DNA from: an uncultured Bacteroidales bacterium
Lineage (GTDB): Bacteria; Bacteroidota; Bacteroidia; Bacteroidales; Marinilabiliaceae
DNA length: 51,318 nucleotides
Reading direction: 5' to 3'
Assembly (NCBI GenBank): GCA_934725785.1
Contig: CAKVCS010000001.1
Location: forward strand, 1 to 51,318
Part shown: piece by piece, positions 10,216-36,970 of the stretch
Position numbering within the stretch: the first letter of the stretch is position 1
Layout: each line of letters starts with the position of its first letter
Translations under genes and position numbers: made by a program
Notes under the pieces: generated by a model
The model's input: only the letters and a program-made list of their open reading frames with translations
Databases searched by the model: none
Told to the model about the DNA's origin: nothing

Positions 10216-11157
10216 TCACAGCCTCTCCACCTGCTCTGCGCTCAGCCCCGTACAAGCCGATATGGTCGCGGAGTCGATCCCCTTCTCTTTCATACCCTTT
10301 GCCACTCTCTCAATGCCGTCACGGATTCCCTGCTCTTTTCCGATTTCAATTCCCTGCTCTTTTCCGATTTCTTTTCCTATCTCAATCCCCTGCTCCTTAC
10401 CTATCTCCTTCCCAATCTCAATTCCCTGCTCCTTGGCGGTCTCCATCGAGTTCTTGATGTCCCTGTAGGCCTTGAGGCTGTCCTCGTAGGTCTTGAGCTC
10501 CGAGGGCGAGAACTGGGCTATCTCGGCCTTCTGGAACAGTTTGGTGAATACGCGGTCCCTGAGCGCCTTCGGCCTCCCCTCGATCCTGGCCATGTTCTTG
10601 AGCGCGTAGAGCCACTTGTCGCTCAGCGTCTCCAGCTCGTCGGCTCCCTTGTCGAACTTGCCAATCTCGATGTATTTGAATATCAGCTTGTCGTAGAAGG
10701 TCCTGTTCGTGGCCTTGTCCTGCAGCTCCACGTCGTGGCAGATTGCGCCGCTGTCGAACGCCTCGTCGTTGTACGCGAAGTTGAGCAGCGCGATGACGTA
10801 CACCTTGCTCAGCCTGAAGTCCCAGTCGGCCCCTTTCCTCGCCTGCTCGCGGATGGGGTATGTGGCGTAGTAGATGGACCTGTCCTTGAAGTACTTCTGG
10901 TACGCGTTCTGCATCTCGACGATGAACTTCTCGCCCCTCTCGTTTTGGCAGTAGACGTCGAAAATGGCCTTCCTCTCCATCAAGACGTCGCCCACGCTCT
11001 CGCCGTTGAGGTACATGACGTCCGTTACGACCTGCTCCCCCTCGAAGAGCGAGTTGAGGAAGTTGATGAGCAGGTCCTTGTTAGGCTTGGTCCCGAAGAT
11101 CCTCTTGAAGCCGAAGTCGGTCAGCAGGCTTATGTATTTCTCCTCCCGGTCTCGCAT
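10216..11157 (-). CDS. Rpn-family recombination-promoting nuclease / PD-(D/E)XK putative transposase
   Basis: YISLLTDFGFKRIFG ... DVYCQNERGEKFIVEMQNAYQ is the hallmark N-terminal PD-(D/E)XK core of this family. The start is set at ATG 11155-11157 (MRDREEKYISL). Confidence 0.8.
   Translation of the reverse strand: MRDREEKYISLLTDFGFKRIFGTKPNKDLLINFLNSLFEGEQVVTDVMYLNGESVGDVLMERKAIFDVYCQNERGEKFIVEMQNAYQKYFKDRSIYYATYPIREQARKGADWDFRLSKVYVIALLNFAYNDEAFDSGAICHDVELQDKATNRTFYDKLIFKYIEIGKFDKGADELETLSDKWLYALKNMARIEGRPKALRDRVFTKLFQKAEIAQFSPSELKTYEDSLKAYRDIKNSMETAKEQGIEIGKEIGKEQGIEIGKEIGKEQGIEIGKEQGIRDGIERVAKGMKEKGIDSATISACTGLSAEQVERL
10321..10440 (-). repeat. in-frame tandem repeat (24/36-nt units) inside the Rpn C-terminus
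   Basis: The DNA units GATTTCAATTCCCTGCTCTTTTCC and variants encode EQGIEIGKEIGK EQGIEIGKEIGK EQGIEIGK EQGIRDG. Confidence 0.85.
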
Positions 11158-11175
11158 GTCATCTCTGTTTTTGCC

Positions 11176-11183
11176 CAAAAGTA
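11176..11183 (-). promoter_or_regulatory. exact TAnnTTTG (-7) box upstream of the Rpn gene
   Basis: The minus strand reads TACTTTTG, 17-18 nt before the ATG at 11157. Confidence 0.4.
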
Positions 11184-11185
11184 GG

Positions 11186-11219
11186 AATAAAAAATGGCAA
11201 TGGCGCGATGCCATTGCCA
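11186..11219 (-). terminator. rho-independent terminator ending the six-gene vWA/tubulin/TerD operon
   Basis: Perfect 10-bp stem TGGCAATGGC / GCCATTGCCA (11195-11219) with a 5-nt loop, followed on the minus strand by TTTTTTATT. Confidence 0.75.
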
Positions 11220-11267
11220 GCAATATGGGTTGTTGAATTTTATCGACACGAGTCTCAGCGCGCCTGC

Positions 11268-11846
11268 CTATTTGTTATCTCTTAGTATTTCATTCACAAT
11301 GCGCTGGACGCTCTCATACTTCTCTCCGAGCTGCCGTTTCCTGTCCGCTCCGTTGCCGTAGATGCCTTTTATCACGTCTTTTGCCGTGTCATGGTCGCTA
11401 CCGCCGTCGCGCTCTTGCTGCCGGACGATGTCCGGGGCGTCCACCTCTTCTGCTATGTGAGCCTCCTCGCCGCTTTGCTTTGCGGCGGGTGCGGCGCTCT
11501 CTGCCTCGGTCGGGCTGCTGCACCCCTCTGCCGCGGTGGCTGGCGCCGTTGGCGATTCTGGCGTTATTGTTGTCTGTTTCGCAGGTGTTTCTATATGCTT
11601 GGTTTCCTGCGGGTTCGCTGTCAACGCCGATTCTGCGGGCCCGCGTTCCGGCCATAGGGCGAATGCCGCCACGCCGACGGCTACGGCCACAGCAGCTGCG
11701 GCGCATACGACAATAGCCGTGGATGGCCGCCCCTTCCGTGGAGCGGCGTCGGCTCTTTCCTCTTTGCTGAAGTCGAAAGACATGCCGCCGTTCTTCTTCT
11801 CAAAGTCGTATTTGCCTACGCTTCCAGCCTCTTTTTTCTGAGTCAT
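11268..11846 (-). CDS. single-pass membrane protein with a C-terminal CW_7 (Cpl-7) peptidoglycan-binding repeat
   Basis: TM segment AIVVCAAAAVAVAVGVAAFALW, then a low-complexity Pro/Ala/Thr/Glu linker. The C-terminus DVIKGIYGNGADRKRQLGEKYESVQRIVNEIL matches the CW_7 consensus (GxxGNGxxRxxxLGxxYxxVQxxVNxxL). The start is set at ATG 11844-11846. Confidence 0.7.
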   Translation of the reverse strand: MTQKKEAGSVGKYDFEKKNGGMSFDFSKEERADAAPRKGRPSTAIVVCAAAAVAVAVGVAAFALWPERGPAESALTANPQETKHIETPAKQTTITPESPTAPATAAEGCSSPTEAESAAPAAKQSGEEAHIAEEVDAPDIVRQQERDGGSDHDTAKDVIKGIYGNGADRKRQLGEKYESVQRIVNEILRDNK

Positions 11847-11853
11847 ATCCTTG

Positions 11854-12531
11854 CTATGCGTATATGTCGGCAAGAGTGGGCATGCCGCCGGTATAACCTG
11901 TCCCCATTGGCTCAAAGACCCATTCGCCCTCGTCGTTCAATATGATGCGGCCGGCCTCTATGGCCGTCTCGTCGGCGAATTTCTCACTCATGTTGAAGCG
12001 GCAGAGGCTCTCGCCGGTCTCCTCGTTTGTTATCGTTATGGCGGGCGACTCTACGGACTTGAATGTCTCAGTCTGGGCGTCGGGCTTGGCGTATATGGCG
12101 GCTCCGAACACGATGGCGCGAACCGACTCGCTCACCCTGTCAAGCACCACGTGCATGGTTTCGCAATTCTCATCGTCTGCGTCGTCGCCGGCCTCGTCTG
12201 GCGAGCCGATTACGGATGTGTCGGCCGAGACGGGCACCGTCATAGCCTTCCACGCTTTCTTGGTGCGGTGGGCCTGCAGGTTGAACGGCTCTATCTTGCC
12301 TTCTGTCACGTCATCCTCCGAGGATGGGCGCCAGCGGTTGTCCGAGTTGTAGTAGACAAAGTCCTCCCTGCGTGTCAATATGCCGTCTTCTCCCACCAGG
12401 AAGGCGCACACGTCAAGGTCTGCGTCGCCCTTCCACGTCAAGTCTACGCGTATCTTGTTCAGTCCCTCTTCTTTGCCGAAGTTGAATTTCTGCCCCTTTG
12501 CCAGTTCTTTGCCGAAGTTGAATGAGTTCAT
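11854..12531 (-). CDS. TerD-family stress protein
   Basis: LAKGQKFNF...IRVDLTWKGDADLDVCAFLVGEDG...EDFVYYNS ... acidic GDDADDE segment ... VFGAAIY ... WVFEPMGTGYTGGMPTLADIY is the canonical TerD pattern. Confidence 0.85.
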   Translation of the reverse strand: MNSFNFGKELAKGQKFNFGKEEGLNKIRVDLTWKGDADLDVCAFLVGEDGILTRREDFVYYNSDNRWRPSSEDDVTEGKIEPFNLQAHRTKKAWKAMTVPVSADTSVIGSPDEAGDDADDENCETMHVVLDRVSESVRAIVFGAAIYAKPDAQTETFKSVESPAITITNEETGESLCRFNMSEKFADETAIEAGRIILNDEGEWVFEPMGTGYTGGMPTLADIYA

Positions 12532-12544
12532 GTGCTTATGTTTT

Positions 12545-14902
12545 TTAGTCGTTTATATATTTTTCTGCCACTTGGCGCAGGGGGACGTATTCTATGCCGT
12601 ATTCGGCAAAGAGGGTGACTATCTGCCTTATGGTCTGCTTTTGCGCCTCTGTCATGTCCCCATTGGCGCCTTTGGCTATTTCGTCTATGAGTCTTTTGCT
12701 CTTTATGAGCGTCACGCACTCGTCCGCCATGTGCGAGTTGCGCTCGACGGTCGCGAAGTAACGCTTGGCTTCGCCCAGGCGCATGTCGCGCAGCAGCTTA
12801 TACCCGTTGCCCAGCATCTGTGGGCCGCGCTTGGGCGCAGTCTCTTTTTCGGGGGCGGGGGAGGGCTCGCCCGCGGTCTCTCCGATTGCCTTGACCGGTT
12901 CTCCTGGGGCGCTCTCTTCCGTCGCTTGTGGTGTCTCCTGGTCGTCCGTGCCGATACCTGTCAGGGTTTTCACGTAGTCGGTCGCGAGGGGCATCACTTG
13001 CAGTGTACATATCTTGTCTTTTATGGCGTTTGTCTGCAACGCCTGGTATGACACCCCCATCTCGGGTAGGCCCGGTTGAGCGTGCTGGTTGCTGCTGGCG
13101 AATATCAGGACCTGCCTCTTGGTGAAAAGGCTCACGTCGTTGACGTACACATATGGCAGAGACTGGGCTTCCATGTGGCAATATAGCGCGCCAAGTGACG
13201 GGATGCTTATGAAGCCGTATGGTTTAGCCCAGTCGACCGTGGCGTAGCGGCCAGCCTCCGACGCCGAGACTGAGGCGAACGCCGTGGCGAGCGAGTTCTT
13301 CCCAAGGCTCAGCAGGCGGGCGTATTCCGCCTCTATGCGCTGGGCGTACTCTGTCATCTCCTTTTTGAAGTGGACTATGGCTTTACCCTTGTCCACTATG
13401 TTTGTCGCATCTCTGAACGAGGTGAGCTCTGATCGCTCCAGCTCCATGTCGAGCCGGACACTCTCCGCTTTCAGCTTGGCGACCTCGGCCTCTAACTTTT
13501 TATACCTCTCGCTTTTCTCGGTGAGGATTAGGATTTCCTCGTTAGCTTTCAGCGCGTTGTCGCATATGGCGATAATCTTGTCGCATGCCGCGCTTTGGGC
13601 TTTCAGGCTCTCTATCTTGACCCTCCTGTTAGCCCCGCTGCCAGTCAGCCATTCCCATATCCTTGTCCACAGTCGACGGTTGTCGGCCTCGTCTTGCAGG
13701 GCGCAGGCTTCGTCGTCATGCCTCTTTTTGCCTTCCGCGGCCTTCTTTTTCTCGTTTTCGACCCAAGTCCGGAACTCTTCGGACTTCACGCCCCGCACGA
13801 GCCTCGCGTAGTTGCGCTTGAGTGTCTCGAACGCCTCGGTCGTTTCCGCCTGTTGCCGCGAGGACCCGCCGTGTGCGGCGGCTTCAGCCTCTTGAGCCGC
13901 TTTGCGCACCATGTCGCGGGTCAGGAGCGTCTCGCCCAGGGGGCTCTCCTTGCCCATCAGCGGGCCTATATGTTCCTTTATTATGTGGTCAACCTTGGCC
14001 GCTACGTTCTCCTCTCCCGCGGGGCTGCTGTAGTCTGGCTTTTTGAGTCTCGCCGCGAGGCCTTCCATTCTCTTGCGCAGGCCGGTGGGGTTGTCCTCAA
14101 TGTCGAGCGGGTCGTCCGAGCCCATGGGGCACTCGCCGTTCAGGCGAACCTCCACGAGGGCGCGGCTCAACGCCAAGCTCTGCATGCGCTCCACGTCGGG
14201 GGCGAAGTACATGCACTCTGCGTGACCTATGGAGAAGACGTGCGAGCTGACGTTGGTCGGCAGCGCGGCGTTCACCACAAGCCCGCACGTGGCGGGGTCC
14301 GACGCGAGCAGCATGAAGTCCGCCAGCACGCGCGGCAGGCGGAAGTCGTGATGCTCCTCGCCCGTGAATGACGCTCCGCCTTTGATGTTGCGCGTCTCGA
14401 CATACAGGGTGTAGGGCGCCTCCGACTCCGACGTGCGCTCAAGTATGTGCGCCAAGGCCTCCTCGGCCATGACTGACGTCACGTTCGCCGGCCTCTTGGT
14501 GTCATATCCCAGCACGACATGCCACACGGTCAGAGCCCCGAATCCGTTCTTGGGGTCGTTGCGCAAGGCCATGAGCCGTCTGAACGCGCTCTGGTCGAAG
14601 TCGTTCTCGCCATACGGGTTGTCAAGGAAGAAGAGGTTCAGCTTGGCAGTGACTGTCGCTATGCCCGCCGCGCCCATGAACTGCGCTATGTGGTTGGCCA
14701 TCCCGCACCCCATGTCGTCGTCCGCCTCGGTGTCCGAGCCGGGTATGCTGAATTCATACCCCTCGCCCTCGTCGCGGATAAGGCCGTAGGAGACCAGCAT
14801 GTCCGCCGATGCTGTGCGCGGGACGCACTCCTCCGCTATCTGGCGCGCTATGCTGTCGGTCTCGCTCTTGCCGCTGACCACTATGAAATGTGTGCGAGAC
14901 AT
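12545..14902 (-). CDS. 785-aa hypothetical protein with a central coiled coil (partner of the tubulin-like GTPase)
   Basis: Long ORF in an operon with 13-15 nt gaps to its neighbours. Residues about 330-520 are Glu/Lys/Ala/Arg-rich heptad-like sequence. I recognised no catalytic motif. Confidence 0.6.
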   Translation of the reverse strand: MSRTHFIVVSGKSETDSIARQIAEECVPRTASADMLVSYGLIRDEGEGYEFSIPGSDTEADDDMGCGMANHIAQFMGAAGIATVTAKLNLFFLDNPYGENDFDQSAFRRLMALRNDPKNGFGALTVWHVVLGYDTKRPANVTSVMAEEALAHILERTSESEAPYTLYVETRNIKGGASFTGEEHHDFRLPRVLADFMLLASDPATCGLVVNAALPTNVSSHVFSIGHAECMYFAPDVERMQSLALSRALVEVRLNGECPMGSDDPLDIEDNPTGLRKRMEGLAARLKKPDYSSPAGEENVAAKVDHIIKEHIGPLMGKESPLGETLLTRDMVRKAAQEAEAAAHGGSSRQQAETTEAFETLKRNYARLVRGVKSEEFRTWVENEKKKAAEGKKRHDDEACALQDEADNRRLWTRIWEWLTGSGANRRVKIESLKAQSAACDKIIAICDNALKANEEILILTEKSERYKKLEAEVAKLKAESVRLDMELERSELTSFRDATNIVDKGKAIVHFKKEMTEYAQRIEAEYARLLSLGKNSLATAFASVSASEAGRYATVDWAKPYGFISIPSLGALYCHMEAQSLPYVYVNDVSLFTKRQVLIFASSNQHAQPGLPEMGVSYQALQTNAIKDKICTLQVMPLATDYVKTLTGIGTDDQETPQATEESAPGEPVKAIGETAGEPSPAPEKETAPKRGPQMLGNGYKLLRDMRLGEAKRYFATVERNSHMADECVTLIKSKRLIDEIAKGANGDMTEAQKQTIRQIVTLFAEYGIEYVPLRQVAEKYIND

Positions 14903-14917: not shown

Positions 14918-17821
14918 TTATCGTTTGTCTTGCTTTGTGCGCAATTTAATCTCGCTCTCCACGAGGCTCGCTGTAGCCTCGTACACATCGTTGTGGCTCT
15001 CCAAGGCGTCAACCTCCTCTGGGTTCATATTGGGGTATGCGTACATGTCCTTGTATCGGCTGTTTCCAATGCCTCTGAGGCTGTCGAGAGTCTCTTTTAC
15101 GAAGTCTGAGCCGCGCTCGTTCTTTATCTCTTTGATTCTCTTTTCAACATCTTTGCGCAAATTGTTCAGCTCAAACTGCTTGTACGCCACGTTACGCCGC
15201 TCCCCAAGGTTTAGGCGGTTGTTGTCTATAGCGTTGCCCTTGTCTGACGTCATCCAATATTGCTTTTTCTCCTTGTCGAAGCGTATAATAGGCAGCCCGT
15301 CTTGCATGGTGAAGCAGAAGGCCTGCGTCCACATGTCGAGTGCTTCGTCAGCCTTCTCGGCTGGCCACATTGAGAACTTCATCGACTCGCGCAATGAGTC
15401 CATTCCCGTATCAATAGAGCACGAGAGGCCGCTTGCCTCGTTCATCCGGCGGTTGTATTCGTCCTCATATGTCTTGAAGTTGTTCACAGCGAAAACAGGC
15501 ACCGAAGACTCCACCATCATGATATACACTCGGTCCTTCTGACGGGTTGATGCGTATTTAGGGTCTGTTATGTCATATTTCAAAGCCGCTTTAACAGAGG
15601 CCTCCTTCATTATCGTGTTTGCTTGGTCTGGTACTCCAACCAGAACCTGGCGCGCACGGTTGACATTCTCTGGCATCTTGCCGTGGTAGTTTATTGTCCA
15701 CATGGGGGTGGCCAGGTCGAGGATATATTTTGCGTTGCGGATGACGTTCTCTGTCCCCATTTCTGTTAGAACCTCCTCTATGTTCTTGCTCAGCGCTGCC
15801 GACACGGGCTGCGTGGTGCCCGCATAGTGCATCACCCTGTTGGCCGTCTCGCTTGTCGACTCCTTAAGCCACTCTGTAAGGCTGCGACCCGACGGCATCG
15901 AGTCCGATGTGCAGAAGTCGTTCCACATCTGTTGGCTGATGGCGGGGTTTATGCCGTTCAACGCGTTAATGTGCAGGTATACCTGGAATTTCGATTTTGG
16001 TCTGCACGAGTTGCGCAGTCTCACCACTTCGCTGTCAAATTCGCCGCCTATCTGCCTCATTATCTCCATCTTGGCTGCCACCAACGCCTTGTAGGCTGCC
16101 ACGTCCTCCTTAAGCTTTGTGTAGAACAGGATGGCCAGCTGATGCCTCTTCAGGTCCATCGTGTCGCGTATGCGCGAGTTCACGGTGTTGCTCAAGTCCT
16201 CGGCCTCGTCGCTCAGGAATCGTCCGAACAGCCCGTGACACCCCGCCAACTCTTTGATCCAGTCGGGACACTCCCTCAGCCTGGCCTCCAACTCTTTGCT
16301 CTCGCTCACCATCTCGCCGAGACACGAGTCCATTAGGGCGTCCAGCGCCGTCAGGAACGCTGCCGAGGCTGCCAGTCCGCCGCCCGCGGGGTCGCATATG
16401 ATTTTGCGGATTTCCTTCTCGAGCAGCCGCTGCGTGTTGGCGAGCTTGCTTGCGCAGTTCGCCTCGGGGGCCGTGTCGCTGCTGGCCATGTTGAGACGGT
16501 TCACGATGTCGTCCGCCTCCGTCCCCTTCTCCACCTCGAAGGGGCGCAATGCGCCGAGGTCGCATATGGCGTCGGTGACGTCGTCGTGCAGGTGGCCGCC
16601 GTTCTCCCTTATCTTCACGTCCTCGCGGTCCACGAAGTTGTCGCACAGGGTGGATCCCACCTTTTCCGTGTTTAGCAGTTTGTTCGTCAGCCGCTCCGCC
16701 ACGGCGTAGGCCGTAGCGATGCCCATGGTGTCACTGTCATACACCAGCTCGGCCGCGCTCAACGAGTTAGCCCAGGCGCATTTTTGTGATATTTTGAAAT
16801 TTATGTGGTTTGCTATTATGTTATCCTTCATCTCGTCAGCATGATCTCCCATGTCGCCCGATGGAAGGAAGGCACATTTTGCCACGTTATCCAGTAGGTC
16901 GTCAAGCCCATTGAACGTGTTGCCGGAACTGCTGACGTTGTTTATCAAGTATGCGAATTCGAACGGCTTATCCGTTATTGTGTTGTTGCCGAATGGTATT
17001 AGTTTTTTCGCCGCGTCTTTCCCGTCGAAATTACCGAATATGAAGTCGAGGTCGCGCAGGGTGCCGTAGGTGTTGTAGTTGACGTTGAACGATCCAGTAG
17101 GTGTTATTTGCTTGTATATGTCTGGCATAACAACCCACGGTATCACGAGGCAGTCGTTCGTCATTCCGAGGCTTTTCTTTACCCTGTCTATCATTAATAG
17201 CACGTCTATCAGCATTCCGGACCCTGTGCCTCCACTCATAGAGCAAATGACGTTGACGGTTGTTTTGGACGGTATGCCAGGCTGCTTTCCCTGTCCCAGC
17301 TGGTATTTGGAGTCGGGAGGAAGTGGTTCGCGTGTGTAGTTCAGGGCGTTTAATATGCGAATTTCTATCTCCTTTCGGTTATATCTGGCAATGAAGCATC
17401 CGCTTGAGCGTACCTGTCCCGCACCTGTGCTCTTTATTGCGCCCAGAGCGCCCACATTATCGAATGGATCTTTCGGCATCCAGGTGAATTCCGACTCTTG
17501 GCTGCGGTATATCTCAAGCGCGTTTTGAACCGTGACGCACTTTATCTCGCTTGCCGACAGGCGCACCTCGCGGCTCTTTATCTCCTTCACGTTGGTCACC
17601 TTGCCGTCGACGACCGAGTATGTCACCCCGTTGGCGTCGTTGCCCGCCTTGGCTACGGCCAGGTTGCCTATGCCGTCCTGCGTGTCTATCGCCAGGAAAC
17701 CAATCATAGGCTGCGGAATCTCGCCATACGCGTCTATGAAGTGCCTCTTTATCTTTACGAGTGTCTTCGCTCCAGTGCCGCCAATGCCCACGTAGAGCGT
17801 CCTGTTTATGCTTATCGCCAT
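14918..17821 (-). CDS. tubulin/FtsZ-superfamily GTPase (Tubulin_2-like), 967 aa
   Basis: N-terminal LYVGIGGTGAKT (T1-like glycine loop), STGAGQVR, and the tubulin signature SMSGGTGSGM (GGTGSG encoded at 17216-17233). Confidence 0.75.
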   Translation of the reverse strand: MAISINRTLYVGIGGTGAKTLVKIKRHFIDAYGEIPQPMIGFLAIDTQDGIGNLAVAKAGNDANGVTYSVVDGKVTNVKEIKSREVRLSASEIKCVTVQNALEIYRSQESEFTWMPKDPFDNVGALGAIKSTGAGQVRSSGCFIARYNRKEIEIRILNALNYTREPLPPDSKYQLGQGKQPGIPSKTTVNVICSMSGGTGSGMLIDVLLMIDRVKKSLGMTNDCLVIPWVVMPDIYKQITPTGSFNVNYNTYGTLRDLDFIFGNFDGKDAAKKLIPFGNNTITDKPFEFAYLINNVSSSGNTFNGLDDLLDNVAKCAFLPSGDMGDHADEMKDNIIANHINFKISQKCAWANSLSAAELVYDSDTMGIATAYAVAERLTNKLLNTEKVGSTLCDNFVDREDVKIRENGGHLHDDVTDAICDLGALRPFEVEKGTEADDIVNRLNMASSDTAPEANCASKLANTQRLLEKEIRKIICDPAGGGLAASAAFLTALDALMDSCLGEMVSESKELEARLRECPDWIKELAGCHGLFGRFLSDEAEDLSNTVNSRIRDTMDLKRHQLAILFYTKLKEDVAAYKALVAAKMEIMRQIGGEFDSEVVRLRNSCRPKSKFQVYLHINALNGINPAISQQMWNDFCTSDSMPSGRSLTEWLKESTSETANRVMHYAGTTQPVSAALSKNIEEVLTEMGTENVIRNAKYILDLATPMWTINYHGKMPENVNRARQVLVGVPDQANTIMKEASVKAALKYDITDPKYASTRQKDRVYIMMVESSVPVFAVNNFKTYEDEYNRRMNEASGLSCSIDTGMDSLRESMKFSMWPAEKADEALDMWTQAFCFTMQDGLPIIRFDKEKKQYWMTSDKGNAIDNNRLNLGERRNVAYKQFELNNLRKDVEKRIKEIKNERGSDFVKETLDSLRGIGNSRYKDMYAYPNMNPEEVDALESHNDVYEATASLVESEIKLRTKQDKR

Positions 17822-17846: not shown

Positions 17847-18770
17847 TTATGACAGTTGTATCTTGTTCTTCGTCGTGTTGTCCGTCGCCGTCAGTGGTGC
17901 GTCACTGTACTGCGTCTTGCTCGCCGAGAGCGTGAACCCTCCCCCGGCCACCCTTATTTCCTTGCGGCCGCGCCGTCCGGGCTTCATCCGCAGGGTGCTG
18001 GTGAACGCCGGAGACGTCACGCAGAGTGTCCTCCCCGTGAAGAAAGCGGAGGCCAGGCTCTGCTTGGCAGCCCTGCTCGTCAAGACGACCTCGGCGAAGC
18101 CGCCCATCCTGACAGTCTTGGGCCCATATATGATGCGCCCCGCCTGGTCGGTCACGACCACGCTCTTGCGGGCCGTCGGGCCGAACGTCCGCCTGTGGAG
18201 CGCCAGGCGAGCAAGGAAGATGACGGCGGCCATGGCGCACAGGGTTATTAGCTGCCCCTTGGCAAGGGGGTTCATGTCCTTGTCGAAGTATATTGTCCAT
18301 TGCATCAGCTTCGCGCCCTCGCTCGCCTCCATGCCGTTGACGCAGGCCATGCCGTGCGGCCGCATGACGAGGTAGCCCTGGTGCTTGCCCCCCTCGGCCT
18401 TGGGCAGGAAGCGGAAGCCCACCCCGACCTCGCGCGTCCTCCCCCCGTCCGCCGCCGATATGCTTATCACGTTGCCGCTGGCGCGACGGCCGTCAATGGT
18501 CACCTCGAGCACGTCTTCCGGGACGGGCGCGCCATCATTGTCTGTCACCACGAGGTCCACCGCCGCTCCGTCATTCACCGCGTCGTCGTTGAAGGTCAAG
18601 GCCATCCTCTTCACGAGGCTTGTGGTGTCGGCGTCCGACCACAGGAAGCCGTCGTGCCAGCTCGTCGTGCCGAGCGTCACTCGCTCCATGCCGTCGTCTT
18701 CCGAACACGAGGCCGCTGTCGAGGCCGTGATGGCCGCGACGGCCATCACGCGCAGAATCTTGGTGCTCAT
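17847..18770 (-). CDS. lipoprotein-like bitopic membrane protein
   Basis: Lipobox-like signal AITASTAASC|SEDD, an internal TM segment LITLCAMAAVIFLARLAL, and a basic C-terminal tail. In the same operon. Confidence 0.55.
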   Translation of the reverse strand: MSTKILRVMAVAAITASTAASCSEDDGMERVTLGTTSWHDGFLWSDADTTSLVKRMALTFNDDAVNDGAAVDLVVTDNDGAPVPEDVLEVTIDGRRASGNVISISAADGGRTREVGVGFRFLPKAEGGKHQGYLVMRPHGMACVNGMEASEGAKLMQWTIYFDKDMNPLAKGQLITLCAMAAVIFLARLALHRRTFGPTARKSVVVTDQAGRIIYGPKTVRMGGFAEVVLTSRAAKQSLASAFFTGRTLCVTSPAFTSTLRMKPGRRGRKEIRVAGGGFTLSASKTQYSDAPLTATDNTTKNKIQLS

Positions 18771-18802: not shown

Positions 18803-19789
18803 TCAGTCTTTGAACGAGATGTTCACGGTGGGGTAGTGCTTGTTTATGCAGCGGATCTCAATTGCCTTGCTCAGCAGGAACGTGAAGCGCGGCAGCCCCT
18901 GAGCCTCGGCCTCTATCGTCCACAGGTGATCTTCGGGAGGGTCCGCTGTGAGCTTCCGGGCGTACAGGCGGATGGCTTTGCCGCCGTCTTCCGTGGTCAC
19001 CGTCTCCTGGCGTGCTATGGCATACAGCTCGTCGTCCGACTTGAGCGTTATCTTCGCCCCGCCCGGGTCGCCGTCTATGGCTATGTCCACGTGATCCCCG
19101 TCTCTCACGGCGTAGACCGTCGAGTGCCTCAGCTTCACGTGGTTGATGTTCACGTCGGCCGTCTCCACCGTCCACAGCTGGGCGTCTTGCCTCTCCACCT
19201 CGCGCTCTATGTCCTTGGCGGCGGCGGCCCCGGTCAGCATCACGTAGAATCCGTAGCTCGTGGGGCTGGTGCTGCGCTCCCACCTGCCTATGGCGTCGAA
19301 TAGTCTGCCGCGGGTCTGCGAGAAGTTGGCCCCGTCGGTCATCAGGTAGAAGTATGTGTCGCCTTTGCGCTTGCCATAGTTGCTATAGAAGTCGTCGAAG
19401 GGGACGTATATCTCGGTGTGGCAGTCGTCCTCGAGCTTCAGGCCGTCCACGAATTTGCAGATGGCCTCTTTGCCCTCGGCTGTCGCCCTTTCCTTTTTGC
19501 GTGTCAGCTTGTGCCCGCTGTCGGTCCACGCCACCACCTCGAGCGTGGCCGTCTCGTCGTTCACGTTGCGAATGGCGCGTTTCAGGTTGCCCGTCACTTC
19601 GCCCCATATCGGCTTCATGGATCCCGTCACGTCCAGGTAATACGCCCTTGCCTCCACGCCTTGAGCGCAGGCCGCCCCAGGGAAGGAGGCCGCTGCCAGC
19701 GTCGCCGCGGCGCATGCGCCGAAGATTGCCGCCTGTCCGCGTCTTTTTGCGAGTGCGGCAAGGGCTCGCAGTGTGTGTTTCCGAGGCAT
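18803..19789 (-). CDS. secreted von Willebrand factor A (vWA) domain protein (TerY-like)
   Basis: The start is set at ATG 19787-19789 (MPRKHTL...). Signal-like AAIFGACAAATLAAASFPGAACA|QG, followed by a MIDAS-like YYLDVTGSM. Confidence 0.6.
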   Translation of the reverse strand: MPRKHTLRALAALAKRRGQAAIFGACAAATLAAASFPGAACAQGVEARAYYLDVTGSMKPIWGEVTGNLKRAIRNVNDETATLEVVAWTDSGHKLTRKKERATAEGKEAICKFVDGLKLEDDCHTEIYVPFDDFYSNYGKRKGDTYFYLMTDGANFSQTRGRLFDAIGRWERSTSPTSYGFYVMLTGAAAAKDIEREVERQDAQLWTVETADVNINHVKLRHSTVYAVRDGDHVDIAIDGDPGGAKITLKSDDELYAIARQETVTTEDGGKAIRLYARKLTADPPEDHLWTIEAEAQGLPRFTFLLSKAIEIRCINKHYPTVNISFKD

Positions 19790-19810
19790 GGAGATTCTGG
19801 TTTTGTGTTC

Positions 19811-19850
19811 TTCACAAATTTCAATAAAAAAAAACACTATCCAAATTTTA
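19811..19850 (-). promoter_or_regulatory. Bacteroides-type promoter for the six-gene operon (TTTG - GTG T9 spacer - GAAATTTG)
   Basis: The minus strand reads AAAATTTGGATAGTGTTTTTTTTTATTGAAATTTGTGAA. The -7-like box (19815-19822) lies 26 nt before the ATG. Confidence 0.45.
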
Positions 19851-19884
19851 TTGACCTGCGTGGCTTCGGCCCTGCGCTAAAGCG

Positions 19885-19924
19885 GCGAGGCGCGGGCTTG
19901 CCAGTCAACAAGCCCGCGCCTCGC
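19885..19924 (-). terminator. GC-rich hairpin downstream of the TagF-like gene
   Basis: Perfect 16-bp inverted repeat GCGAGGCGCGGGCTTG / CAAGCCCGCGCCTCGC with an 8-nt loop. The U-tract is weak. Confidence 0.5.
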
Positions 19925-19957
19925 GCCGGTCTGTGTGCCGCCTCCCGTGGCGGGGGG

Positions 19958-21193
19958 TCACGCGTATCCCTCTCCGCCCAGTATGGCCGCCATTATGTTC
20001 TCGCATGCCGTGCGCCCGCCCGGCGGTGTCAGCATGCTGGCGTAGAAATTGTCCCTCTCCGCCCTCAGCGGGTCCTGGCCGCCCACCACCACCTCGTCAA
20101 TGAACCGCTCTATCTCCCGGGCCGAGCCGGCCTTGTAGTGCAGGTCGTAGGCGCGGCGGGCGAAGTCGGACAGGTTTCCGATCCGCTGACCCTCCTTCAC
20201 CATGTAGAGGGCGGGCCGCCTCGTGTAGAGGTATTCTATGATGAACGAGCTGCAGTCGTGTATCATGGCGTCCGAGTGCATGAAGAGCGACGTGTATTTG
20301 CCGTCCTCGGCCTGGCAGTTCGCCGCCTCGGCCCATCGGGTGTAATACCTGTCGGTGCGCTCACGCCCCCATACGCGGTTCAGCTTGGCGCGCAGCAGTG
20401 GGTGGGGCTTGAATGCGAACTGCACGGTGTCGGCGTGACGCTCCGCGATTTCCAGCATCTCCTCGCCCACGCTCAGGAATGTCGACAGGTTCAGCCCGCC
20501 GTCGTCCTCTATGCTGTGGTGGGGGGCGTATATCACACGCTTTTTCCGCGCGGCCTGCGTCCGCCACGGGTCGGGCCCGCCTTGCGCCCCGCTCATCAGC
20601 TCGTCTTGCATCGGCAGTCCCGTCACCACCGAGTTGCGCGCCCTGTTGTCCATCATGCGCGCTGCGCCGTCGACGCACTCCTGGTTCTCGAAGAAGACCA
20701 TCCACGCCTCGTTGAGAAACGGCAGGTTGAGCCCCCACGTGGTCTCGGTCGTGTGGAACGCGTAGTCTATGAAGCACGTCAGCGTGCGCGCGTTGCGCCA
20801 GTAGGCGTACCCCCCCCTCTCGGTGAATATGGCGTAAGGCTTCTGGTAGAACGCCACGTCGGCCTCCAGATGGTCGCGCGGCCCCATCTCGCGAAATTCG
20901 TAGCCCTTGGCGGCGAGGTGCCTGCGCAGGGCCTGGGTGTCCGCCTCGTCGAGGGTGGGGGGGATGGATATCGTCGGGCGGAAGCGGCTGTGGTCCTTCA
21001 TTGCGGCGTAGAGGCTCTCCGTCTTCCATGCCGAGAGGCTGTTTATCAGGAACTCTACGCTCACCACCTCTTTGCCGCGCATCGCCTTGACCAGGGCGGC
21101 CTCGTCGTGCGCGCGCTCATACCTGGCGTGGGCCACGGCCTTGGCGACGGCGCGCGTCAGCTTGTTGTCGAGTATCTTTCGCAGCGCACTCAT
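19958..21193 (-). CDS. CDP-glycerol/CDP-alditol glycerophosphotransferase family (TagB/TagF-like)
   Basis: VIYAPHH ... FKPHPLLR ... LFMHSDAMIHDCSSFIIEYLYTRRPALYM is the typical TagF-family C-terminal catalytic region. Confidence 0.75.
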   Translation of the reverse strand: MSALRKILDNKLTRAVAKAVAHARYERAHDEAALVKAMRGKEVVSVEFLINSLSAWKTESLYAAMKDHSRFRPTISIPPTLDEADTQALRRHLAAKGYEFREMGPRDHLEADVAFYQKPYAIFTERGGYAYWRNARTLTCFIDYAFHTTETTWGLNLPFLNEAWMVFFENQECVDGAARMMDNRARNSVVTGLPMQDELMSGAQGGPDPWRTQAARKKRVIYAPHHSIEDDGGLNLSTFLSVGEEMLEIAERHADTVQFAFKPHPLLRAKLNRVWGRERTDRYYTRWAEAANCQAEDGKYTSLFMHSDAMIHDCSSFIIEYLYTRRPALYMVKEGQRIGNLSDFARRAYDLHYKAGSAREIERFIDEVVVGGQDPLRAERDNFYASMLTPPGGRTACENIMAAILGGEGYA

Positions 21194-22230
21194 CGGCTCT
21201 TGCGCAGTATCTCTATCGTGCGGCGTATGGCGTCGCGCATCTCGTATCGGGGCTCGAAGCCCGTCCTCTCCAGCTTACTCCCGTCCATCAGGGCCACCGT
21301 GGCCTTGCTATATCCCGCGGCCTCGGCCTCCGAAGGCAGGTCGAACACCACCTTCCTGCCGCACTGCTCGGCGCACATGGCGGCGAAGTCCTTGAGCCTC
21401 ACGTCGGTCTTGCGGCTGCTCACGTTGTACGCCTCGCCGTCCTCGCCGTTCAGCAATATGTGGAGCATGGCGGCAGCGGCGTCCGCCACGTATGTGTATG
21501 AGAATCTCTGCTCGCCGTTGCTCTTCAGCACTATGTCCTCGCCTGCCAGGGCCTTGAGGATGAACTGCGACGACGCCTTGGTGTCCGACGACAGCATCGT
21601 CGGGCCGAATACACGGCTCAGGCGCGCTATGCGCACGCTGACGCCGTACTCTTTGGCGTACGACTGGCACATGGCCTCACTCGCTCGTTTCGACTCGTTG
21701 TAGCACGACCGTGCCGTGCCCAGGTTCAGGGAGCCGGTGTAGTCCTCGGTGAAGACGTCCGCGCCCCGGGCGTTGCCGTATATCTCGACGCTCGAGGGGT
21801 AGAGCACCCTCGCCCCCGTGGCCCTCGCAAGCTCGAGCGCGCCCCTCGCGCCCATTATGTTGGTCATCATGGTCTCGACGGGGTGTTCCGAGTAGGCCAG
21901 TGGGTGGGTGTTGCTCGCCAGGGGTATCACGTAGTCGGGGCGCAGGGCCTCCGGCAGGGGCGATGTGACGTCTTGCTCAACTATTCCGAATGCCTCCTCG
22001 CCTGCGTGGTCGTCCAGCCTCCCGCTCAGCCGGCTCTTGTCGCGCACCACGGCCGTCACGCGGCACCCAGCGCTCAGCAGGGCGTCGGTCAGCATCACGC
22101 CCAGCAGGCCGCCGGCGCCCGTTATCACGGCGTGCTTGCCCCGGAGGCCCTCCGATCCCCTCACGCTGGCCACGTAAGCCATGTCGTCCGCGTATTCGGC
22201 GCAGCCCTTGGCTATCTTGTGCTTTTCCAT
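21190..22230 (-). CDS. extended SDR, NAD-dependent epimerase/dehydratase/reductase
   Basis: Rossmann motif VITGAGGLLG. There is a 4-nt ATGA overlap with the TagF-like gene. Confidence 0.75.
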   Translation of the reverse strand: MEKHKIAKGCAEYADDMAYVASVRGSEGLRGKHAVITGAGGLLGVMLTDALLSAGCRVTAVVRDKSRLSGRLDDHAGEEAFGIVEQDVTSPLPEALRPDYVIPLASNTHPLAYSEHPVETMMTNIMGARGALELARATGARVLYPSSVEIYGNARGADVFTEDYTGSLNLGTARSCYNESKRASEAMCQSYAKEYGVSVRIARLSRVFGPTMLSSDTKASSQFILKALAGEDIVLKSNGEQRFSYTYVADAAAAMLHILLNGEDGEAYNVSSRKTDVRLKDFAAMCAEQCGRKVVFDLPSEAEAAGYSKATVALMDGSKLERTGFEPRYEMRDAIRRTIEILRKSR

Positions 22231-22251
22231 TGCCTTATGTTCTGTTTAGGT

Positions 22252-22974
22252 CTATTTCAGCCACTTGTCCTCTCCCTTGGTGAGGTATCCTTTGAAGAGT
22301 TCCAGGTCGTCCTTCGTCGTCAGCTTTATGTTCTTGTCGCTGCCGGCCGCGAAGTGCAGGCGGACGCCCAGCTGGACCATCATCGTGTTCGTGTAGTTGG
22401 ACCCGCCGATGCCCACGCCCGTCTCGAACGCCTCGCGGTACTTGTCGCGAAGCAGGTCGTAGCGGTAGGCCTGGGGAGTGCTCACGCGGCGCAGGGTCTC
22501 GCGCGGGATGTAGCGCGTGGTGGTGCTCTCGTCCGCCTCGTCGACTATGAATATCTGCTCGTTGTAGGGCATCGAGGTCACCGCGTTGCCGTACGCCTTG
22601 GCTTTCGCCACCACGTCGGTCAGCACCGTCGGCTCCACCATGGGGCGTATGCCGTCGTGGATTATCACGATGTCGTGTCCCGCGCACATCTCGGCGAGGC
22701 TCTCGACGCCGTTCCGTATGCTCTCCTGGGCCGAGGACCCGCCAGCCACAATGTAGCGCAGCTTTGTTATGTTGAACTGGTTGGCGTAGGCCCTCACCAT
22801 CTTCTCCCACCCGTCTATGCACACCACGACGATAGCGTCAACCTCCTTCTGCCTCTCGAATCCCTCGAGGGTGTAGATGAGGACGGGTTTGTCGAAGACG
22901 TTGAGGAACTGCTTGGGGATGTCTTGCCCCATCCTGTTGCCGGAACCCCCGGCTATTATCAAGGCTACGTTCAT
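22252..22974 (-). CDS. IspD/TarI-family cytidylyltransferase (likely alditol-phosphate cytidylyltransferase)
   Basis: MNVALIIAGGSGNRMGQDIPKQF (the P-loop-like motif of IspD/TarI). The start is set at ATG 22972-22974. Confidence 0.8.
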   Translation of the reverse strand: MNVALIIAGGSGNRMGQDIPKQFLNVFDKPVLIYTLEGFERQKEVDAIVVVCIDGWEKMVRAYANQFNITKLRYIVAGGSSAQESIRNGVESLAEMCAGHDIVIIHDGIRPMVEPTVLTDVVAKAKAYGNAVTSMPYNEQIFIVDEADESTTTRYIPRETLRRVSTPQAYRYDLLRDKYREAFETGVGIGGSNYTNTMMVQLGVRLHFAAGSDKNIKLTTKDDLELFKGYLTKGEDKWLK

Positions 22975-23024
22975 TCTCTTTGGTCTGATGTTCTGTTTAT
23001 ATGTTCTGCGCATTGTGTGGTGGG

Positions 23025-24476
23025 CTATCTGCCCAACCTCGTCAATCTCTTTATGTAAGGTTCTATTACACCTTGATATATATCGTCTTTCCTATATCTC
23101 AAAACCATGGAGTACAAGGCTGCCGACACTGTCCCGCCAATGGACAGGCACGCCACGGGCGGGGCCGCAGTGGCCTCGCTCAGCGCGAATGCCGGTGCGC
23201 AGCACAGGGCGGATATCCACAAGTATGGCATGAAGTCACGGCTCTGCTCGCGGTATCCGAGCCCGTATATCCTGCCCGTGCTCCACGTGTTTATCTGCAC
23301 CGCGACCTGCCCATAGGCCACCCGCGACAGGCATATGGCCATCACGCCGAACGGCGCCGCCGCCGCGAGCATGGCCAAGGATATAAGCTTCTTTACCACT
23401 TCAAGCTTGAGAAACAGGCCTGTGCGGCCGTTTATCTGCAGCAGGTTCATGTTTATCTGGTTGATGTGGTCGAACATCACGGCGAACGCGTACACTTGCA
23501 GGTACACCACCGAGCCGGCCCACTTCTCCGTCAGCAGCAGCTCCACCAGGGGTCTCGCCAGCGCCGCCATCAGCATGGTGAGGAACATTATCCCGAGCGA
23601 CGAGGCCTTGACATATTTGCGATACGCCCCTACAAGGGCGGCCCTGTCGTCCTGCAGGCGCGCCAGGATGGGGAACGTCACCCTTTGCAACACGCCCGTC
23701 ACCTGGTAGCTCGGCAGGGTGGCGAACTGCTGCCCGCGGGTGTAATTGCCGAGGTCCGCCGCGGTGTACATCTTGCCTATGGCCATCGTGGCCAGCTGGC
23801 CGTGTATAGTGTTTATCATCGAGGCGGCGAGGAGCTTGCTGCCATAGCCGAACAGGTTTTTGAACGACCTTGACGAGAACTTTAGTTGAGGCCTCCATCT
23901 TGCTGCGACCCAAAGTATTATTGTATTGACAAGAGCCTTGGTCACCGACTGCCACACAAGCGCCCACACGCCGAAGCCCGAGTAAGCCAGGCCCACGCCC
24001 GCCACGCCCGAGAGAAGGGCTGCCGCCGACGACGCCTTTGCCTGGCTCTTGAAGTCCACCGCCACAGTCAGCCTGGCGGTCTGCACAACCCCGAGCGAGT
24101 TTATCAGCAGCGTCAGGGCCAACACGCGGGTCAGCCCCTCAAGCGCCGGAGTCCCGAAGAACGAGGCTATAGCGCCCGCCGAGGCGTAAAGGGCGGCGTA
24201 GCAGGCCAGCCCTACGGCCACGTTGAAATAGAAGGCGGTGGAGTAGTCCGTCTCGTCCCTGTCCTTCTTGCGGATCAGGGCCTTCGAGAAGCCGCTGTCG
24301 ACGATATTCTCCGACACGGCGATGAATATGGCCAGCATCCCCACCATGCCGTAGTCCGACGGCGACAGCTGGCGGGCCAGGACGAACCCGAGCACCAGCT
24401 GTATGCCCTGCGTGGCGATGCGCTCCGCGAGGCTCCATTTCACCCCGCGGGCCGTGTCCTCCCTCACGTCGCCCAC
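23025..24476 (-). CDS. Wzx-type polysaccharide flippase (MOP superfamily)
   Basis: 483 aa and polytopic. The N-terminal KWSLAERIATQGIQLVLGFVLARQLSPSDYG is typical of oligosaccharide flippases. It has a GTG start directly after the LicD stop. Confidence 0.8.
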   Translation of the reverse strand: MGDVREDTARGVKWSLAERIATQGIQLVLGFVLARQLSPSDYGMVGMLAIFIAVSENIVDSGFSKALIRKKDRDETDYSTAFYFNVAVGLACYAALYASAGAIASFFGTPALEGLTRVLALTLLINSLGVVQTARLTVAVDFKSQAKASSAAALLSGVAGVGLAYSGFGVWALVWQSVTKALVNTIILWVAARWRPQLKFSSRSFKNLFGYGSKLLAASMINTIHGQLATMAIGKMYTAADLGNYTRGQQFATLPSYQVTGVLQRVTFPILARLQDDRAALVGAYRKYVKASSLGIMFLTMLMAALARPLVELLLTEKWAGSVVYLQVYAFAVMFDHINQINMNLLQINGRTGLFLKLEVVKKLISLAMLAAAAPFGVMAICLSRVAYGQVAVQINTWSTGRIYGLGYREQSRDFMPYLWISALCCAPAFALSEATAAPPVACLSIGGTVSAALYSMVLRYRKDDIYQGVIEPYIKRLTRLGR

Positions 24477-34554: not shown

Positions 34555-34560
34555 TGCTAT

Positions 34561-34794
34561 ATGAGTGTGTATCAAACCAAAGATGATAGAATGTTGCAAG
34601 CCGTCATATCAGACGAGCGACTTGTCAACTACTATGGCTACAATCCTAATGACTTCACGTCTATGTCTGACGCCTTAAATTCCGATGTGGTTATAGTTCA
34701 GGCTATTGCCAAAATCATCGATAAATCTGGTCAAGGGTGCAGCGTCACGGAAATTTATAATGAGGTAAGAGATTTGCTAACGGCGAAGATATGA
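34561..34794 (+). CDS. 77-aa hypothetical protein
   Basis: Shares the island's AT-rich composition. Its stop overlaps the next start (ATGA at 34791-34794), which suggests translational coupling. I recognised no motif. Confidence 0.5.
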   Translation: MSVYQTKDDRMLQAVISDERLVNYYGYNPNDFTSMSDALNSDVVIVQAIAKIIDKSGQGCSVTEIYNEVRDLLTAKI

Positions 34795-36965: not shown

Positions 36966-36970
36966 CCAAT

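Follow-up and report, generated by a model that had tools for sequence, protein, structure and literature searches.

The window analyzed here is a stretch of 51,318 nucleotides (nt) covering positions 1 to 51,318 of contig CAKVCS010000001.1 (assembly GCA_934725785.1), from an uncultured Bacteroidales bacterium of the Marinilabiliaceae. It contains an operon of six minus-strand genes, one of which is a single ATG-start open reading frame (ORF) for a 967-amino-acid protein of the FtsZl1 family, equivalent to Pfam Tubulin_2. Its Pfam match and predicted fold indicate that this protein is a genuine but very divergent member of the tubulin/FtsZ superfamily, and the genes around it are kept in a near-constant order across more than 80 loci of Bacteroidota and Fibrobacter. 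The ORF and the features within it are as follows.

14918-17821, minus strand: FtsZl1/Tubulin_2 protein, 967 amino acids, predicted to be cytoplasmic (ATG-start ORF, Pfam PF13809, AlphaFold, and Foldseek)
16691-17797, minus strand: tubulin/FtsZ-like GTP-binding head, residues 9 to 377 (extent of the Pfam match; ∼360 to 400 columns aligned to tubulin, CetZ, and FtsZ structures)
17762-17788, minus strand: T1 loop GIGGTGAKT, residues 12 to 20 (G12, G14, G15, T16, and G17 invariant; aligns with FtsZ GVGGGGGN)
17678-17692, minus strand: T2-like AIDTQ, residues 44 to 48 (D46 and T47 conserved; aligns with FtsZ AVNTDA)
17408-17425, minus strand: T3 loop GAGQVR, residues 133 to 138 (invariant G133 and R138; conservation of at least 90% at A134 and G135; aligns with FtsZ GLGAGANP)
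17216-17233, minus strand: T4 signature GGTGSG, residues 197 to 202 (G197, G198, G200, and G202 invariant)
16814-16828, minus strand: KDNII, residues 332 to 336, carrying a family-wide [K/R]-D-N motif, candidate T7/H8 equivalent (conservation and position)
15707-16582, minus strand: helical stalk region, residues 414 to 705, including a 69-residue helix at 537 to 605 (AlphaFold secondary structure)
14921-15706, minus strand: C-terminal alpha/beta and helical region, residues 706 to 967 (AlphaFold secondary structure; no Pfam match)

Residues 9 to 377 match Pfam Tubulin_2 (PF13809) with an E value of 1.5e-40 and 140 bits against a cutoff of 27, the match spanning positions 1 to 353 of the 356 in the profile, and the same family was present in 75 of 75 homologues found. 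Eleven residues of the T1, T3, and T4 loops (G12, G14, G15, T16, G17, G133, R138, G197, G198, G200, and G202) show no variation across a 34-sequence alignment that extends down to 23% identity. Conservation of these loop residues is at least 90% among 82 sequences from related loci, and most of them are still conserved (at least 85 to 90%) once cyanobacterial Tubulin_2 proteins are added. Judged from these alignments, the glycine motifs are far beyond chance. A first-pass annotation, made from the letters of the window before any database was searched, had described a very large tubulin-signature protein with GIGGTGAKT at residues 12 to 20, GAGQVR at about 133 to 138, and the T4 signature GGTGSG at 197 to 202; all three lie at those residues in the ORF, and all three are conserved among homologues, so that the lack of conservation which the annotation had named as a refuting outcome is not seen.

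The 34-sequence alignment was used to build an AlphaFold2 model (mean pLDDT, 86.9; pTM, 0.69), which consists of a head (approximately residues 1 to 400), helices at 414 to 705 that include the 69-residue helix, and a C-terminal alpha/beta region at 706 to 967. All 50 top Foldseek matches to this model in the PDB were gamma-, alpha-, or beta-tubulin, CetZ, BtubA, or FtsZ, each with a probability of 1.0 and with a best E value of 5.7e-5. The matches to tubulin superfamily structures covered 360 to 400 aligned columns with TM-scores of 0.35 to 0.49, normalized to the target. The best matches in a viral structure library were phage FtsZ, tubulin, and PhuZ. Comparison of the predicted structure with known tubulins therefore returned a tubulin fold rather than the non-tubulin Rossmann fold that the first-pass annotation had named as the contrary outcome. 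A 45-residue insert separates S2 from H3 in the head.

No tubulin or FtsZ match was obtained when PDB chains were searched by sequence with the single protein (phmmer) or the family profile (hmmsearch), the family-profile matches consisting only of coiled-coil or helical proteins that represent noise; the link to the superfamily thus rests on Pfam and on fold comparison. A tblastn search with Escherichia coli FtsZ found nothing in the window, including the ORF at 14918 to 17821. Alignment of the head profile with E. coli FtsZ (sequence from NC_000913) by hhalign gave a P value of 0.03 and was confident only over T1 and T2, and within this low-scoring alignment T1, T2, T3, T4, and an S6-like YLINN were colinear with the E. 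coli protein. The failed sequence-only searches, tblastn included, indicate that the protein is strongly divergent.

The departure from canonical tubulins is most evident beyond the nucleotide-binding loops. After the core helix at 306 to 321, the AlphaFold model has a helix at 325 to 338, a single long strand at 351 to 360, and a helix at 363 to 383, which correspond with low confidence to H8, S7, and H9 in the FtsZ alignment; the other parts of the canonical C-terminal beta-sheet domain are absent. Tubulin_2 is the sole Pfam hit in the protein, with no match to FtsZ_C or Tubulin_C. This agrees with the first-pass annotation, which had reported that the remainder resembled neither C-terminal domain, but its figure of about 750 further residues was too high, since the tubulin-like domain ends at approximately residue 380 to 400 and only ∼570 to 590 residues lie beyond it. 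Conserved residues of the C-terminal region (706 to 967) include G714, G729, D763, P775, Y785, W831, Y855, G862, and R876. The annotation had also stated that a recognizable GTPase-activating T7-type domain was lacking. The canonical NxDxxD/E T7 motif was indeed not found in the protein, but the wider claim that any equivalent is missing is unsupported, as the family-wide [K/R]-D-N motif sits in the helix at 325 to 338, directly after the core helix. D333 and N334 are invariant in the 34-sequence alignment and are still conserved to at least 85% once the cyanobacterial Tubulin_2 proteins are added; their conservation and position make them a candidate functional equivalent of T7 and D333 a candidate catalytic residue.

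The remaining genes of the operon and the signals at its ends are listed below in the direction of transcription.

19883-19927, minus strand: GC-rich hairpin located between the operon and the upstream glycerophosphotransferase gene, its 16-bp stem perfect (inspection of the sequence)
19815-19845, minus strand: element resembling a Bacteroidetes promoter (TTTG, 19 nt, GAAATTTG), located upstream of the vWA gene with 25 nt between its end and the ATG (inferred from inspection of the sequence)
18803-19789, minus strand: secreted vWA protein (von Willebrand factor, type A), 328 amino acids counted from the ATG at 19789, carrying a signal peptide and a complete metal ion-dependent adhesion site (MIDAS) (family alignment and profile match)
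17847-18770, minus strand: lipoprotein with lipobox Cys22, a periplasmic domain, a transmembrane helix at ∼168 to 193, and a conserved cytoplasmic tail of ∼110 amino acids (alignment and hydropathy)
12545-14902, minus strand: large partner protein, 785 amino acids, predicted to be cytoplasmic (AlphaFold, Foldseek, and locus comparison)
11854-12531, minus strand: TerD-domain protein, 225 amino acids, accessory (Pfam TerD, 2.4e-34)
11268-11846, minus strand: accessory bitopic membrane protein whose C terminus carries a CW_7 peptidoglycan-binding repeat (Pfam CW_7, 1.4e-12; transmembrane segment)
11195-11219, minus strand: terminator-like hairpin after the last operon gene, with a 10-bp stem, six GC pairs, and a TTTTTTATTC T-run tail

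The first five genes are separated by gaps of 13 to 32 nt, and the CW_7 gene starts 7 nt below the stop of TerD, at the first ATG in its frame (11846). The promoter consensus in Bacteroides is TTTG/TAnnTTTG. The MIDAS of the vWA family is kept at all five positions (D53, T55, S57, T125, and D152, numbered from the ATG at 19789); the family profile matches PTMP1, a protein with two vWA domains (4cn8), at an E value of 2.7e-7, and 12 of 29 family members match Pfam VWA individually. In the lipoprotein, Cys22 is invariant in the family alignment, and basic residues follow the transmembrane helix, as expected of a positive cytoplasmic side. The CW_7 protein carries a Pro/Thr/Ala-rich linker before its C-terminal repeat. 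By hydropathy, no hydrophobic 19-mer or transmembrane segment was found in the Tubulin_2 protein and no transmembrane segment in the partner, and both are therefore predicted to be cytoplasmic. Searches of the six operon proteins with Pfam, NCBIfam, and PADLOC detected no P-loop GTPase. Many long ORFs antisense to the operon are present on the plus strand between 13284 and 21703 (e.g., 19418 to 21703, 761 amino acids) and look like the usual consequence of a high GC content.

Scanning the GTDB species representatives gave 144 loci, and 80 of these were fetched; the counts given here cover 82 to 83 loci. The fetched loci come nearly all from gut or rumen Bacteroidales, with some from Flavobacteriales and one from Fibrobacter, and the distribution of FtsZl1 is patchy. 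Seven loci (L005, L007, L011, L012, L015, L034, and L038) are Bacteroidales-type operons in metagenome-assembled genomes (MAGs) labeled Eggerthellaceae, Bifidobacteriaceae, Clostridium, Pseudobutyrivibrio, Mycobacteriaceae, or Methanobrevibacter; these off-lineage labels probably reflect binning or labeling errors rather than true hosts. The closest relative, at 69% identity, belongs to a Bacteroidales MAG and has the same genes on its flanks.

The order vWA, transmembrane lipoprotein, Tubulin_2, and partner is near-universal across these Bacteroidota and Fibrobacter loci, with intergenic gaps of 0 to 60 nt. Iterative searches matched the lipoprotein in 80 of 82 loci, the vWA protein in 76, and the partner in 66. 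In 32 loci, a fusion of the vWA and lipoprotein genes gives one protein of 570 to 640 amino acids (e.g., L024:5165-6988 and L073:5092-6972, the latter matching Pfam VWA); in 44 loci the two genes are separate. Such fusions argue for a physical interaction between the two proteins and for one unit reaching from periplasm to cytoplasm. TerD (9 of 83 loci) and CW_7 (8 of 83) are confined to the close clade of the window, and the flanks vary among loci, one operon (L002) adjoining a HipA/helix-turn-helix (HTH) toxin-antitoxin pair. Two Tubulin_2 operons with different partner classes occur in each of two assemblies (L022 and L027 in JAZLDO01; L028 and L068 in JAFYZT01); in the Prevotella MAG among these, one operon has a 976-amino-acid partner of the transglutaminase class and the other a 1,155-amino-acid partner.

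The most variable member of the operon is the partner, a homologue of which lies directly downstream of the Tubulin_2 gene in the 66 loci where one was found (e.g., L039:9745-13206). Three classes can be distinguished among these 66 partners. Internal papain-family Peptidase_C1 domains are present in 32 partners of ∼1,080 to 1,250 amino acids, and the consensus of this class retains the Gln, Cys, His, and Asn-Ser-Trp motifs. Five partners of ∼960 to 980 amino acids end in a transglutaminase-like core (Transglut_core; e.g., L028:6958-9885). A further 27, of ∼690 to 790 amino acids, have no recognizable enzyme domain, and the 785-amino-acid partner in the window belongs to this last class; by hhalign, its homology to the peptidase class extends over its C-terminal part (96% and 94%). 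The partner is also the fastest-diverging component, at 34 to 39% identity compared to 56 to 60% for Tubulin_2 and 62 to 68% for TerD.

Single-sequence and profile searches for partner homologues gave only 12 proteins, and the AlphaFold model (pLDDT, 82.9) was consequently built on a shallow 13-sequence alignment. It has a beta-alpha-beta Rossmann-like head, a helix pair, a long strand, a helix, a helical bundle, and an alpha/beta domain, and it ends, after a disordered linker, in a small helical domain. The order of elements is identical to that in the Tubulin_2 protein, and a 68-residue helix at 422 to 489 matches the helix at 537 to 605 there. CetZ2 was the best Foldseek match in the PDB (E value, 0.036; probability, 0.93), with tubulins at 0.85 to 0.90; an integrin A domain scored 0.94, and other Rossmann-like folds had low probabilities. 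On this basis we are inclined to regard the partner as a GTPase-dead paralogue of the Tubulin_2 protein, an idea that derives from the matching order of secondary-structure elements and the weak fold matches and not from sequence comparison. The T1 and T4 glycine motifs were not found in the partner, and hhalign of the partner against Tubulin_2 was nonsignificant for both the full alignments (probability, 0.4%) and the heads (P values of 0.09, 0.008, and 0.23). Within these nonsignificant alignments, some motif pairs are colinear: YLINNxNxxG in Tubulin_2 with YIDNQNxxG in the partner and AExxY on the long strand of both (E358/Y361 with E229/Y232), together with, in the long partner class, KxYxLxYGE with KxxFIDxYGE. 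A P-loop reading of the N-terminal “SGKS” of the partner was rejected, as K12 is unconserved in a 24-sequence family alignment.

The first-pass annotation implied that the window protein was novel, and this did not hold. The “FtsZ-like 1” (FtsZl1) family of Makarova and Koonin, which is the Pfam Tubulin_2 family, was described in 2010 (PMC2875224) as comprising proteins of ∼1,000 amino acids in which an FtsZ-like head at the N terminus precedes a coiled coil and a distinct C-terminal domain, and the same authors had already remarked that no T6-H7-T7 region could be aligned. In the operons that they reported, vWA and membrane proteins were accompanied at times by GTPases, kinases, or OmpA-like proteins; membrane remodeling was proposed as the role, and FtsZl1 was described as coexisting with canonical FtsZ and judged unlikely to function in division (PMC2875224). 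Their data set tabulates Bacteroides caccae BACCAC_02057 (913 amino acids) with its operon (PMC2875224). The N terminus of this protein (IKRCLYIGLGGTG...FIETYGEVPPMIGFLGIDTDG) has near-identical motifs and is plainly orthologous to the window protein, and its neighbors, a 535-amino-acid hypothetical protein and a 1,152-amino-acid “COG4870 cysteine protease,” form the same three-gene context (535/913/1,152 amino acids). An exhaustive search yielded 1,102 clusters of Tubulin_2 homologues at 50% identity with an E value of ≤1e-3, 403 at ≤1e-10, and 120 at ≤1e-30, and more than 100 of them share the full architecture of 900 to 960 amino acids. The window protein is an ordinary member of a family known since 2010 and later included in Pfam, and it already has a record of its own in NCBI and ENA. 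In a phylogenetic study of 2023, Tubulin_2 proteins served solely as an outgroup and were still treated as uncharacterized.

Immediately downstream of the operon is an Rpn-family PD-(D/E)XK “transposase”/recombination nuclease (10216 to 11223, minus strand; Pfam PDDEXK_2, 5e-70), which also neighbors the operon at the closest relative (L001/L004). Upstream lies a surface-polymer cluster of the teichoic acid-like type (19958 to 25352, minus strand) with genes for a CDP-glycerol glycerophosphotransferase-like protein, an NAD epimerase/dehydratase, an IspD-like cytidylyltransferase, a Polysacc_synt_3 flippase, and LicD. The closest relative shows synteny for this cluster, and the more distant loci do not. 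A low-GC island (∼46%, compared to ∼60% elsewhere; 27103 to 37489, plus strand) lies roughly 7 kb away from the operon; it encodes a phosphorothioate Ssp/Pbe defense system and was probably acquired horizontally. Its genes are as follows.

27103-27960, plus strand: SspB
27957-31178, plus strand: SspC
31171-32277, plus strand: SspD
32278-34554, plus strand: PbeA helicase/PLD protein
34791-36965, plus strand: PbeC-like AAA_23 ATPase
36971-37489, plus strand: uncharacterized 172-amino-acid protein

The locus looks chromosomal, the operon has no plasmid or phage genes, and no dcw-cluster, TubR, or centromere-like neighbors were seen in the window. Farther along, a BspA-type leucine-rich-repeat protein (45412 to 46989, minus strand; Pfam LRR_5, 1.6e-80) is of a type usual in host-associated Bacteroidales.

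We propose as the most likely role, with a probability of roughly 45%, that the operon may encode an assembly switch gated by GTP, which would link sensing in the periplasm to effectors in the cytoplasm and serve as an envelope stress or conflict module. The vWA-lipoprotein pair would capture a ligand, damage, or an envelope perturbation via the MIDAS, and the tail of the lipoprotein, which makes a single pass through the inner membrane, would relay the signal into the cytoplasm. The Tubulin_2 protein, probably with the partner, would then assemble at the membrane in a GTP-dependent manner, and assembly would act as a threshold switch gating the effector of the partner, i.e., the papain-like cysteine peptidase or transglutaminase-like domain found in most Bacteroidales. 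In the class to which the window belongs, the output may involve TerD and the CW_7 protein instead of an enzyme domain. Several observations led to the view of a switch in biological conflict: the core is constant and the effector variable, the partner evolves fast, more than one system can occur in a genome, and the neighborhoods shift. A constant core with a variable effector has been taken as a signature of conflict systems, and modules combining tubulin and vWA proteins have been proposed as such systems in Firmicutes and Actinobacteria (Kaur, Burroughs, Iyer, and Aravind 2020; PMC7159879). The varied genomic contexts, with the window operon beside the Rpn transposase and ∼7 kb from the Ssp/Pbe island and L002 beside HipA/HTH, count in its favor as well.

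Several points weigh against this proposal. No curated defense model (PADLOC 2023) matched the vWA protein, the lipoprotein, Tubulin_2, the partner, or TerD, and NCBIfam returned nothing relevant for the operon proteins. In the literature, fifteen years after the description of this family, which forms the most divergent branch of the tubulin superfamily, we found no experimental work on Tubulin_2/FtsZl1 (structure, biochemistry, or phenotype) and no link of the family to defense or to Bacteroides. A periplasmic sensor is unusual for antiphage systems, and the partner in the window carries no recognizable enzymatic domain. The signaling chain is deduced only from domain content, topology, and gene order. 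In addition, a protein with neither the canonical C-terminal activation domain nor an unambiguous T7 loop might bind GTP without forming filaments. Finally, the surface-polysaccharide cluster beside the operon, in both the window and its closest relative, would fit envelope biogenesis equally well.

This last point bears on the main rival, the membrane-remodeling or vesicle biogenesis machine proposed by Makarova and Koonin, in which the GTPase would polymerize on the inner membrane and deform or tether the envelope together with the vWA, lipoprotein, and peptidoglycan-binding proteins, in the manner of bacterial dynamin-like proteins. Besides the adjoining polysaccharide genes and the published inference for FtsZl1 operons (PMC2875224), it would accommodate the fact that the accessory proteins are all envelope proteins (secreted vWA, transmembrane lipoprotein, and CW_7 transmembrane protein) and that a GTPase head joined to a helical stalk, one helix of which runs for 69 residues, is dynamin-like in form. 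We consider remodeling a serious rival but less likely than the switch: the polysaccharide neighborhood is not kept in more distant loci, no membrane-binding element was found in the Tubulin_2 protein by hydropathy, dynamin-like matches to its model in the viral structure library were nonsignificant (probability, 0.13 to 0.23), and neither the interchangeable papain-like and transglutaminase-like domains of a cytoplasmic partner nor the rapid evolution of that partner would be explained. The same envelope context could instead point to a factor for assembly or anchoring of a surface structure, with the vWA protein as an adhesin or matrix binder and the Tubulin_2 GTPase positioning or clustering a trans-envelope complex without any signaling. 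Domains of the vWA type with a MIDAS are classic adhesion modules, the neighboring genes make a surface polymer, and a peptidoglycan-binding CW_7 protein is present here, as are OmpA-like proteins in other lineages. Such a role is improbable, given a vWA protein that is small (∼330 amino acids) and has no signal for outer-membrane or surface export beyond its Sec signal peptide, peptidase and transglutaminase partners that are cytoplasmic, and a polysaccharide neighborhood that is clade specific.

The head itself, with its tubulin/FtsZ fold, intact T1 to T4 loops, and structural matches to phage PhuZ and FtsZ, might suggest a cytomotive filament that serves in cell division or segregates DNA, as formed by FtsZ, TubZ, or PhuZ. 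We regard this as very improbable, as the protein has neither an FtsZ_C/Tubulin_C domain nor an NxDxxD T7 loop, the locus looks chromosomal, the operon contains no plasmid or phage genes and has no dcw-cluster, TubR, or centromere-like neighbors, the distribution of FtsZl1 is patchy, and the published view is that FtsZl1, occurring beside canonical FtsZ, is unlikely to act in division (PMC2875224). A role as a switch or assembly protein rather than a division protein, in line with the divergent cytomotive or switch protein suggested by the first-pass annotation, is therefore reasonable, the operon being one of vWA and envelope proteins and not a division cluster, even if the novelty that the annotation implied was not borne out. 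A more specific form of the switch proposal is that Tubulin_2 and the partner are diverged paralogues that form a hetero-assembly like that of alpha- and beta-tubulin, with one GTP-binding and one GTPase-dead subunit, as part of a trans-envelope immune or stress switch in Bacteroidota; GTP-dependent coassembly triggered by the vWA protein would then activate the peptidase or transglutaminase of the dead subunit. We think that this form is unlikely, but if true, a pseudo-tubulin hetero-assembly would constitute a tubulin-based signaling or abortive-response system not described so far.

The protein is no discovery in its own right, being a member of a known, curated family, and the B. caccae type of operon has already been tabulated (PMC2875224). 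If the switch model is true, the tubulin fold would be in use outside cytoskeletal mechanics. Members of the Bacteroidota subfamily are common among genomes from gut and rumen and also occur in cultured carriers (e.g., B. caccae ATCC 43185, Segatella copri, Xylanibacter ruminicola KHT3, and Myroides odoratimimus), so that laboratory study is possible.

With bacterial dynamin-like proteins the window protein shares, by analogy only, a GTPase head on a long helical stalk at the membrane, but their P-loop GTPase fold is unrelated to the tubulin fold. TubZ and PhuZ are likewise divergent prokaryotic GTPases of the tubulin fold, and phage homologues are among the structural matches; they differ in being ∼300 to 480 amino acids long, rather than 967, and plasmid or phage borne with TubR/centromere or phage nucleus genes, and in forming segregation filaments, no such features being present here. 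The canonical tubulins (CetZ, tubulin, BtubA/B, and FtsZ) share the head fold, and the T1 to T4 and S6 motifs follow the same order as in E. coli FtsZ. In contrast, their C-terminal beta-sheet domain is replaced, after the S7 to H9 equivalents, by the stalk and a new domain (∼570 residues); the 45-residue S2-H3 insert, [K/R]-D-N in place of NxDxxD/E, and the gene context are further differences. The hallmarks of canonical FtsZ, namely, Pfam Tubulin (PF00091) with FtsZ_C, the NxDxxD T7 motif, and dcw context, are all absent here.

The systems described in PMC7159879 likewise combine a tubulin superfamily protein bearing a C-terminal coiled-coil or helical extension with linked vWA proteins, one of them extracytoplasmic, have two tubulin-domain genes per system (in Firmicutes), pair a constant core with a variable effector, and are predicted to act near the membrane. 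They are, however, defined by a DO-GTPase (a TRAFAC P-loop GTPase) with GAP1 (DO-GTPase/GAP1-N2 systems) and described as restricted to Firmicutes and Actinobacteria, whereas the window operon has no detected P-loop GTPase and the effectors (peptidase or transglutaminase) are built into the partner.

The closest correspondence is with FtsZl1 itself. The window protein has the full-length Pfam match, the T1 and T4 motifs, a length within ∼900 to 1,100 amino acids, and the succession of head, long helices, and family-specific C terminus; it has no recognizable T6-T7 region or FtsZ_C/Tubulin_C domain, and it is encoded in an operon with vWA and membrane proteins. No feature excludes it from the family. 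It differs in that its C-terminal region is predicted to be alpha/beta with helices, compared to “mostly alpha-helical” in the 2010 description, and in that no P-loop GTPase, protein kinase, or OmpA component was detected in the window operon. For the Bacteroidota subfamily, the present analysis adds the topology of the operon proteins; the assignment of the upstream protein, “hypothetical” in 2010, as a vWA-lipoprotein pair or fusion; the three classes of downstream partner, with an overall architecture like that of the Tubulin_2 protein, and its possible nature as a pseudo-tubulin; and the [K/R]-D-N motif.

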